Positions 47,878-53,129 of a stretch of 64,000 nucleotides of DNA are shown here, in pieces (within the stretch, counting starts at the first letter, position 1; each line of letters starts with the position of its first letter). The position numbers were made by a program, and so were the translations under genes. Location: contig CAYWVF010000014.1 in assembly GCA_964461815.1 (NCBI GenBank), positions 1,515-65,514 of the forward strand, read 5' to 3'. This DNA is from an uncultured Oscillospiraceae bacterium (GTDB lineage: Bacteria > Bacillota > Clostridia > Oscillospirales > QAMX01). The notes beneath the pieces are model-generated. The model was not told where the DNA came from and searched no databases. It worked only from the letters and a program-made list of their open reading frames with translations.

Positions 47878-48264
47878 ACATAAGGTTGCGATATGAAGAT
47901 ATGATCGCAATGTGCATATGGCGATGATGCCGGAGATTGCTGCCGGAAAAGGCAGGTAACTTTGGCGGAGTATGTCCGCACACCGTAAGAACGGTGAATA
48001 TGTCGGGCGGCTGAGGATACTGTGTACGCGCGTTTGTGCAGTAGCTGTACTGCATGGCACTATGTGCCAAAAAAGGACAAACCAACACGAAGCAGTAAGG
48101 AGCCGGATAGTGTAAAGATAATGGCTTCCGAGGTAACTTGGGAGAATAGTATGTCTGAATGAAAAGATCCGGTTTTTTCATGCAAAGGTTTTAAACGCAC
48201 GGTACGGTTGCAGGATTTCCTCGTCGTACGAACAAAAGTACGTACAAGAAAGGAAAGTTAGGAA

Positions 48265-51414: not shown

Positions 51415-51765
51415 ATGGAAGCTAGAGCATATTTGAGACATATCCGCATTTCCCCGCGTAAAGTTAAGATCGTTTGCGACCTTATTCGCGGAAAAGACGT
51501 GGCAACAGCCGCTTCTATCCTCATGCATACGCCGAAGGCAGCTAGCGAGCCTATGCTGAAGCTGCTTAAGAGTGCAATGGCTAATGCTGAGAACAATTTC
51601 GGTATGGATATCGAGTCACTCGTTGTAAGCGAAGTATTCGTTTGCCCGGGTCCGACACTTAAGAGAATCATGCCGAGAGGTAAGGGCAGCGCTAACAGAC
51701 TGCTCAAGAGAACTTCACATGTTACACTGGCAGTCAGCGCTCCTGACGCTAGTGACAAAGAATAG
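51415..51765 (+). CDS. rplV: 50S ribosomal protein L22
   Basis: IRISPRKV motif. Confidence 0.95.
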
Positions 51766-51783: not shown

Positions 51784-52677
51784 ATGGGCCAGAAGGTAAA
51801 TCCCCATGGACTGCGCGTAGGCGTTATCAAGGACTGGGATTCAAGATGGTACGCTAAAAACGAAAAGGTCGGAGACCTGCTCGTCGAGGATTACAAGATC
51901 CGTAACTATATCAAGAAGCTTTTGTATGATGCAGGAGTACCGAAGATAGAGATCGAGCGTAACCCGGCTAAGGTTCGTATATTTATCCACTGTGCAAGAC
52001 CCGGTATCGTTATCGGACGCGGCGGTGCAGATATAGAAAAGCTCAGACTGGACCTCGAAAAGATGATCGGTAAGAGCGTAGCAGTTAATATTATCGAGAT
52101 AAGAAATCCTGACCTCAATGCTCAGCTCGTAGCAGAGAGCATTGCAGCTCAGCTCGAAAAGAGAGTAAGCTTTAGACGTGCTATGAAGCAGTCTATGGGC
52201 AGAGCTACAAAAGCAGGCGCTAAGGGTATCAAGACAGCTGTTTCCGGTCGTCTTGGCGGCGCTGAAATCGCAAGAACAGAGCATTATCACGAGGGTACAA
52301 TTCCTCTTCAGACAATCAGAGCTGACATCGACTACGGCTTCGCAGAAGCTCATACAACATTCGGTCGTATCGGCGTAAAGGTTTGGATATATAACGGCGA
52401 AGTTCTTACAAGCGGACCGAGACAGAGCACTGTTCCGGCACCGAGACAGGAAAGACGCGACAGACGTGAGAGACGCGACGGCGACCGCGGCGGTTACAGA
52501 CGTGACGGTCAGCAGGGCGGCTTTAAGCGTGATGGCCAGCAGGGCGGTTACAGACGTGACGGTCAGCAGGGTGGCTTCAAGCGCGATGGTCAGCAGGGCG
52601 GATTCAAGCGTGACGGCCAGCAGGGTGGTTACAGACCGAGACCTGCTCAGGCAAAACCGGAAGGAGGCAACGAATAA
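51784..52677 (+). CDS. rpsC: 30S ribosomal protein S3 with a C-terminal Arg/Asp- and RDGQQGG-repeat extension of about 80 aa
   Basis: [12 protein letters not shown] start, KH and S3-C domains. Then six imperfect 9-aa (27-nt) repeats RDGQQGG[FY][KR]. Confidence 0.9.
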
Positions 52678-53129
52678 TGCTTCTGCCAAAGAGAGTTAAA
52701 TACCGTAGAGTACACAGAGGTCGTTTGACAGGTAAGGCGTACCGCGGAAATACAGTTTCATACGGCGAATATGGTCTTGTTGCTATGGAGCCGGCATGGA
52801 TCAAATCAAATCAGATAGAAGCAGCTCGTATCGCCATGACAAGATATACAAAGCGTGGCGGACAGGTTTGGATCAAGATATTCCCGGATAAGCCGGTTAC
52901 ACAGAAGCCGGCTGAAACACGAATGGGTTCCGGTAAAGGCTCACCTGAGTATTGGGTAGCAGTAGTTAAGCCGGGAAGAGTCATGTTCGAAATAGCCGGA
53001 GTAAGCGAAGAAGATGCACGTGAAGCTATGCGTCTTGCAGGCTATAAACTGCCTATAAAGACAAAGTTTGTTAAACGTGCCGATGTCGAGGACAATTCAG
53101 AGGACGGCGGTGAAGTAAATGAAGGCTAA
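52677..53129 (+). CDS. rplP: 50S ribosomal protein L16
   Basis: [11 protein letters not shown] start. Short acidic C-terminal tail. Confidence 0.95.

Follow-up and report, generated by a model that had tools for sequence, protein, structure and literature searches.

Disordered extensions on ribosomal protein uS3 (S3) and on other proteins that handle RNA have been described in several systems. The terminal extension of Mycobacterium smegmatis uS3 is flexible, was left unmodelled and lies at the messenger RNA (mRNA) entry site (PMC5876184). Variable uS3 length has already been noted in bacteria outside the candidate phyla radiation (non-CPR bacteria; PMC9297842), and the low-complexity regions of bacterial ribosomal proteins have been surveyed (PMC6821194). 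The extension of eukaryotic uS5 (RPS2) is absent from E. coli, unresolved in structures and of low AlphaFold confidence (PMC10216425). GAR1 carries RGGFNRGGG units (PMC9957100), and the disordered C-terminal regions of RhlE helicases facilitate RNA binding, unwinding and phase separation and vary strongly between lineages (PMC11260450). Here we analyze the rpsC gene of an uncultured Oscillospiraceae bacterium, found on a stretch of 64,000 nucleotides (contig CAYWVF010000014.1 of assembly GCA_964461815.1; hereafter, the window), which encodes a uS3 of 297 amino acids (aa) with a long repetitive C-terminal tail. Literature searches, directed at extensions of uS3, at RGG in bacterial ribosomal proteins and at the motif strings, returned no description of this repeat tail.

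The 297-aa protein has the domains, the score and the operon position of a bacterial uS3. Pfam matches were obtained for KH_2 (PF07650) at aa 38-110 (76 bits) and Ribosomal_S3_C (PF00189) at aa 120-202 (127 bits), and the NCBIfam equivalog TIGR01009 (rpsC_bact) covers aa 1-209 with 309 bits against a cut-off of 114.5. The gene lies between rplV and rplP in the S10-spc-alpha ribosomal operon, and related contigs have the identical gene order. Beyond the end of the family model there are 88 residues. An earlier reading of this DNA from its letters alone (the sequence-only reading) had proposed a C-terminal extension of about 80 aa built from tandem repeats of 27 nucleotides (nt), and the end of the TIGR01009 match at aa 209, together with the output of Tandem Repeats Finder (TRF), bears this out, at ~80-88 aa. 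The range given there, 52430-52677, covers the tail; the extension proper begins at ~52411. In an AlphaFold2 run on a 32-sequence alignment, the predicted local distance difference test score (pLDDT) was ~70-87 for the core over aa 30-210 and below 50 for aa 211-297, for which no secondary structure was found. On this model the tail is predicted to be an intrinsically disordered extension that lies outside the conserved core.

The tail begins with a linker and a block of Arg, Asp and Glu residues, continues with six 9-residue units and ends in a 13-residue Pro/Ala segment. The Arg/Asp-rich stretch ahead of the repeats is as the earlier description had it, and so is the count of six units. However, only five of the six fit the proposed forms RDGQQGGFK and RDGQQGGYR, that is, RDGQQGG[FY][KR]; the last of them reads RDGQQGGYR, and the first unit of the array is a degenerate RDGDRGGYR. 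TRF reported two periods, one of 27 nt at 52489-52636 (5.5 copies, 76% matches) and one of 54 nt (2.5 copies, 89% matches). Since the 54-nt period is tighter than the 27-nt period, at least part of the growth of the array came about by duplicating a double unit, FK+YR. In 5000 shuffles, nucleotide identity at a lag of 27 was 0.28 +/- 0.04 and at most 0.42; the observed value was 0.73. GC content is 63% in the tail and 45% in the window, and a six-frame translation of the whole 64 kb contained no second low-complexity stretch of this kind.

In composition the tail is dominated by Gly (21 of 88 residues) and Arg (18 of 88); Gln is also abundant, and the six aromatic residues (Phe plus Tyr, 6 of 88) recur at a spacing of nine. 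There are 22 basic and 12 acidic residues among the 88. The units had been likened to RGG-type repeats, a comparison that does not stand. RGG occurs once in the tail, within DRGGYR, and the RG dipeptide also once, whereas the RGG/RG motif, as Thandapani and colleagues are said to have defined it in 2013, requires RGG or RG in sets of two or three (di- or tri-), with 0-4 residues between them.

The same 297-aa protein was assembled independently from run SRR14160765, on a 2049-nt contig that agrees with the window at 2048 of 2049 bases; the 894-nt rpsC is identical in the two assemblies, repeats included. A related variant of 288 aa was assembled three times, from three samples, with identical repeats. 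The differences among the five regular units are those of a translated sequence: 32 codon differences are synonymous and 12 non-synonymous, all 12 of the latter being coupled Phe-Lys/Tyr-Arg alternatives, and codon position 3 holds 40 of the 52 nucleotide differences while position 1 has none. Relative to L081, a locus with 95% nucleotide identity in the core, the tail has indels of -6, +3 and -6 nt, all of them in frame. The one-base overlap of the rpsC stop codon with the rplP start is repeated in 65 of 78 related loci. With the method of Nei and Gojobori, the ratio of non-synonymous to synonymous differences per site (pN/pS) against close relatives was 0.11-0.15 in the tail and 0.03-0.05 in the core; judged by these values, the tail is more relaxed than the core, yet clearly constrained at the amino-acid level. 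A role of the repeat at the level of RNA was considered and is unlikely, since the units differ mainly at synonymous sites and no Rfam match is present there. Tails are also found in cultured isolates, among them Brotocaccenecus cirricatena (L033, 278 aa) and Pseudoflavonifractor sp. 524-17 (P0096, 284 aa), and are therefore not a quirk of metagenome-assembled genomes (MAGs).

Distribution was examined in the 120 top-ranking homologues of the database and in 80 loci of species-representative genomes, and tail composition in 188 relatives. The best 120 are mostly unnamed metagenome proteins, nearly all of 276-369 aa; those with names are assigned to Oscillospiraceae, Ruminococcaceae, Oscillibacter, Pseudoflavonifractor or Clostridiales. 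A common layout was seen: after a short linker come an RR(D/E) block, Gly-Gly-aromatic-(Asn/Lys/Arg)-Arg units in variable number, a Pro/Ala stretch and a K/R/P-EGG-xx end. The proximal block takes the form (RRD/RRE)n in relatives also, the units include GGFNR, GGYNRDNRQ, RPQGQGGY, GPAGGQGGFNR and others, and the Pro/Ala-rich stretch followed by the K/R/P-EGG-xx end is present in nearly all. This layout is the rule in Oscillospiraceae- and Ruminococcaceae-type Clostridia. The sequence-only reading had allowed that the extension might be absent from all relatives and arise by misassembly or a frameshift; the tail is widespread, and this does not hold.

In 176 of the 188 relatives at least 50 residues follow the core KVWI motif, which sits ~7 residues before the core end. 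Within these 176 tails Arg and Gly each make up 20% of residues on average, the net charge is always positive (+7 to +18, mean +11.5), and the commonest spacing between aromatic residues is 9, most spacings being 8-11. RGG triplets are few (mean 1.1 per tail; at most one in 129 tails, and at least three in only 24). The length of the tail is far less stable. Across the 80 loci the shortest S3 has 221 aa and the longest 394 aa, the unit number going from 0 to more than 10, and only 29% of pairs with a core identity of at least 98% share the same tail length. In the 90%-identity cluster of the window protein the lengths are 297, 294 and 288 aa; with five units, the shortest form is exactly one short of the six in the window protein. 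The locus thus combines in-frame periodicity of the DNA with unit-number differences between close relatives, which are the marks of a coding tandem repeat, and the tail is built and resized by in-frame tandem gain and loss of 27-nt units and 54-nt double units. Variation of repeat number between strains, which had been anticipated, was found between close relatives; within a strain none was seen, either between the two 297-aa assemblies or among the three 288-aa assemblies. Exact-pattern scans of metagenome contigs for strain variants gave no match, though JGI contigs with that sequence exist. Tail length rises with the GC content at third codon positions (GC3) of the core gene (Spearman 0.49, not corrected for phylogeny).

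Of note, in the 288-aa relative (P0122; loci L085-L087) several units read RDGDRGG[YF][KR] instead of RDGQQGG. The interchange of QQ and DR at unit positions 4-5 takes several nucleotide changes and creates true RGG triplets; this suggests that units turn over, or undergo gene conversion, inside the array. An S3 with an Oscillospiraceae-type core and tail also occurs in genome bins assigned to Collinsella, Bacteroidaceae, Bacteroidales and Alistipes onderdonkii (L038, L039, L062 and L064); the match includes the RTTPRT...KPY linker, and L062 is cut off before the C-terminus. This points to contamination of these bins.

Not all members of the order have a tail. Clostridium merdae (L045) and an Acutalibacteraceae MAG (L057) both have an S3 of 221 aa. 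Outside the order, the tail is absent from the S3 proteins of Bacillus, Staphylococcus, E. coli and Thermus in the PDB (217-239 aa). A further tail-less protein, P0022 (221 aa, 97.5% core identity), is encoded on L084, a 1522-nt contig (JGI 3300023371), and was considered as a very recent loss of the tail. This was rejected: nucleotide identity is 92% through rpsS, rplV and the rpsC core and 75% in rplP. As identity falls exactly at the junction of core and tail, L084 probably arose at the repeat through a chimeric joining of short reads or through recombination.

Our preferred reading, to which we assign a probability of roughly 0.55, is that the tail is a genuine, translated and intrinsically disordered extension of uS3, most likely a flexible polycationic RNA-binding arm by the mRNA entry site. 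uS3 is part of the ribosomal mRNA helicase ring. By analogy with the uS3 extension of M. smegmatis, the placement of the tail that the sequence-only reading had proposed, near the mRNA entry and on the solvent side, appears reasonable. The tail would stay on the assembled 30S subunit, leaving the C-terminal domain of S3 on the solvent side of the head and lying beside the uS3/uS4/uS5 mRNA entry site. There it would bind RNA non-specifically through its Arg and Tyr/Phe residues, so that incoming mRNA, possibly structured, would be more readily captured and held locally; it might perhaps also aid assembly of the 30S head. Such an arm would be analogous to the basic disordered tails that boost RNA binding and unwinding on bacterial DEAD-box helicases. 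Arg is enriched in the low-complexity regions of prokaryotic RNA-binding proteins (PMC6821194). Selection keeps the composition, the net positive charge and an aromatic residue at about every ninth position, and not the exact sequence. The proximal block may in addition have a defined contact with ribosomal RNA (rRNA), as hinted by positions P212, R213, R224 and R227, which are invariant or nearly so in 32 homologues.

Several points weigh against an RNA-binding arm. Lineages of the same order (L045, L057) have no tail, and since tail-less relatives exist, the tail is dispensable for ribosome function. The fast turnover of tail length and its correlation with GC3 are also compatible with a low-complexity region that is simply tolerated. 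The presence of 12 acidic residues among 22 basic ones weakens a simple polycation model, and the pN/pS values come from few sites and small counts, in repeats whose alignment can be ambiguous. A bolder version of the same idea, which we regard as improbable, would make the tail a glycine/arginine-rich (GAR)-like RNA-binding module of the ribosome, the equivalent in bacteria of the RG-rich extensions that surround the mRNA entry of eukaryotes. Such a module would act as a tether for incoming mRNA or for the transcribing polymerase, or would bring ribosomes together in clusters, and the repeat number would serve as a fast-evolving dial for the translation of structured mRNAs in a major clade of gut anaerobes.

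That the tail is an artefact, whether a misassembled repeat, a frameshift that hides an upstream stop or a miscalled open reading frame (ORF), is effectively refuted. The repeat is indeed stop-free in several frames, with ORFs 52466-52699 (+) and 51841-52689 (-) crossing it, and the very similar short contig L084 has no tail. Against this stand the identical independent assembly, the hundreds of relatives with the same layout, cultured isolates among them, the in-frame indels, the substitutions that follow the coding frame, the stop codon overlapping the rplP start in most loci, and the likely chimeric nature of L084. The 282-aa antisense ORF, which spans rpsC, and the 77-aa ORF in the other forward frame are most likely by-products of the stop-poor composition and not genes. 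The main rival to an RNA-binding arm, possible though on the whole unlikely, is that the tail is a tolerated, nearly neutral low-complexity region without a specific function. In this view the repeat, rich in GC, free of stops and situated at a terminus exposed to solvent, would go on growing and shrinking by replication slippage, with selection removing only harmful versions that are prone to aggregation or wrongly charged. The wide range of S3 length in one order, with some lineages tail-less, the quick turnover of tail length even at 98% core identity or above, and the rise of length with GC3 (rho 0.49, again without phylogenetic correction) all fit such a region, and uS3 tails of unrelated composition across bacteria are what a permissive terminus would be expected to give. 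On the other hand, pN/pS in the tail is well below neutrality, differences from unit to unit are almost all synonymous, and the 176 tails have in common a conserved charge, Arg/Gly content and spacing of aromatic residues (~9 residues). The base composition bears on the same question: because the tail is so much richer in GC than its surroundings, it has been kept against the local base composition, and mutation bias was rejected as its sole explanation. Moreover, some 80 extra residues are costly on a very abundant protein, an argument that has been made for ribosomal low-complexity regions (PMC6821194).

Two further readings place the function of the tail elsewhere. S3 is a late-assembling protein of the 30S head, and the tail could act mainly before or during assembly and not in translation, as a built-in RNA chaperone or a solubility tag; free S3 would thereby stay in solution and bind faster, late in assembly, to the head. 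The near-invariant proximal positions fit the defined rRNA contact that such a role might involve, Arg-rich mixed-charge tails and GAR domains are tied to proteins of eukaryotic ribosome biogenesis (GAR1 and nucleolin sequences in PMC9957100), and the RG-rich extension of uS5 has dedicated chaperones (PMC10216425). However, tail-less relatives assemble ribosomes with the same core, and the sequence does not separate a role in assembly from one on the mature ribosome; we consider this reading distinctly improbable. Highly improbable, and based on the analogy with eukaryotic RGG/YG proteins that the sequence-only reading had drawn, is the idea that the tail drives weak multivalent clustering between ribosomes or between ribosomes and RNA, in condensates, storage or hibernation. 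The sequence has a sticker-and-spacer look, with an aromatic residue and Arg about every nine residues in a Gly/Gln/Asn spacer, it is predicted to be disordered, and disordered regions of bacterial RNA helicases do phase-separate (PMC11260450). The tail has, however, a single RGG and only 6 aromatic residues, and its charges (22 basic and 12 acidic in 88) make it a strongly and evenly mixed polyampholyte. Evenly mixed polyampholytes favour expanded, soluble chains.

The conserved EGG at the C-terminus of the tail, which the sequence-only reading overlooked, coincides with the Shine-Dalgarno sequence of rplP. The 3' end of rpsC reads AAA CCG GAA GGA GGC AAC GAA TAA TG, with GGAGG 9 nt upstream of the rplP ATG (52677). 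Of 78 loci, 71 have a GGAGG no more than 20 nt from the rplP start, with a 9-nt spacer in 61 of them. The first Gly codon of the EGG tip is GGA in 64 of the 73 loci with an EGG end, as against 12% (131/1063) for the other Gly codons of the tails. Short S3 proteins share the same end: Bacillus subtilis uS3 terminates in ...KKNEEGG and tail-less Oscillospirales in ...KREGGNK. An alternative in which EGG is a protein docking tip, with the repeats inserted before it, was rejected after the test of codons and spacing. The conserved EGG end is largely a nucleotide-level constraint, the rplP Shine-Dalgarno sequence, for translational coupling of uL16; it may have a dual role, as protein tip and Shine-Dalgarno sequence. 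Ahead of it the low-complexity region can grow and shrink freely. A comparable arrangement is seen at the 3' end of rplP (53080-53129, +), which encodes the acidic C-terminal tail of uL16: rpmC starts (53119) before rplP has ended, and here too a Shine-Dalgarno sequence of the GGAGG type is read in frame (DGGE), as in rpsC. Coordinates of the features are collected in Table 1.

Table 1. Features of the rpsC region, in window coordinates, with the basis for each assignment
Feature	Position	Strand	Basis
rpsC (uS3, 297 aa; TAA stop 52675-52677)	51784..52677	+	ORF list, TIGR01009, Pfam
Conserved globular core, aa 1-209 (KH_2 + S3_C domains)	51784..52410	+	Profile matches, AlphaFold2, pN/pS
Proximal linker and mixed-charge block, aa 210-230	52411..52473	+	Read from sequence; conserved positions in homologues
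Six tandem 27-nt (9-aa) units: RDGDRGGYR, then five RDGQQGG[FK/YR]	52474..52635	+	TRF, unit table, shuffle test
Pro/Ala-rich end and tip, aa 285-297	52636..52674	+	Read from sequence; similar end in relatives
GGAGG Shine-Dalgarno of rplP inside codons GAA GGA GGC (E-G-G)	52663..52667	+	Codon and spacing test across loci
rplP (uL16), start overlapping rpsC stop (TAATG)	52677..53129	+	ORF list
rplV (L22)	51415-51765		Directly before rpsC in gene order

Further upstream, an Rfam S10-Clostridia leader (RF03136) was found at 47916-48000 (+), with 42.1 bits against a gathering score of 35.1, ahead of rpsJ (48265). The match supports a Clostridia origin of the window and suggests an S10 operon with an autoregulatory leader of the L4 type.

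If the tail is functional, the ribosomes of very abundant gut Clostridia carry a fast-evolving RNA-binding appendage beside the mRNA entry, and these bacteria would offer a natural system in which to study the tailoring of bacterial ribosomes by disordered extensions. Other consequences are practical. Short-read assemblers break or form chimeras at the repeat, as L084 illustrates; the variable tail should be masked when S3 serves as a phylogenetic marker; and, because the last codons of rpsC double as the ribosome-binding site of rplP, an engineered truncation must keep them.

Among solved ribosomes in the PDB, none has an S3 with a tail of the present type. The longest bacterial S3 chains deposited there are those of Mycobacterium (274-275 aa), Cutibacterium acnes (269 aa) and Mycoplasma pneumoniae (273 aa), and several entries deposit only ~206-210 S3 residues. 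These three share with the window protein the same core and a C-terminal appendage beyond about residue 210. Among representatives at 50% identity, long low-complexity uS3 C-termini are common across bacteria, including A/E/K-, A/P/E- and RGG-rich types and Gln/Arg repeats. Other bacterial tails are often Ala/Pro/Glu-rich, Lys/Glu-rich or plain RGG-rich and without aromatic residues, whereas the tail described here is a clean 9-residue Gly-Gly-aromatic-basic array that varies in unit number. Two 'S3' proteins of 456-568 aa in the same set (P0160 and P0173) contain uL16-like sequence downstream; they are read-throughs from rpsC into rplP, by frameshift or fusion, in high-GC genomes and not real long S3 proteins.

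The extension of eukaryotic uS5 resembles the S3 tail as a disordered Arg/Gly-rich extension on a protein of the mRNA entry, a site surrounded by uS3, uS4 and uS5. It differs in being N-terminal and on another protein. Its RG repeats are true ones, which PRMT3/Hmt1 dimethylates and to which dedicated chaperones bind, whereas the S3 tail has a single RG. GAR domains, as in GAR1, fibrillarin and nucleolin, are likewise Gly/Arg-rich with regularly interspersed Phe. Units of the (G)GGFNR kind occur in many relatives of the window S3 (P0024, for instance, has GGQGGGFNR six times), and some of these, with GGGFNR arrays, come nearer to GAR1 than the window tail does. GAR domains, however, are found on snoRNP and nucleolar proteins and have RGG repeats, whereas the window unit, RDGQQGG[FY][KR], has Asp and Gln, almost no RGG, and is on a ribosomal protein. 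As far as the residues can tell, the S3 tail is GAR-like in composition only, and the similarity is most likely convergent low complexity. A protein homology search with the tail only, for a shared module in other families, gave no scored match, probably because the query is of low complexity. RhlE1 and RhlE2 resemble S3 in having a basic, disordered C-terminal tail on a conserved RNA-handling core. There is no sequence relation, and the RhlE proteins are free enzymes whereas S3 is a stoichiometric component of the ribosome. Taken with these systems, the tail adds a well-documented example to the disordered extensions that bacterial ribosomal proteins are already known to carry, and is not a new mechanism.

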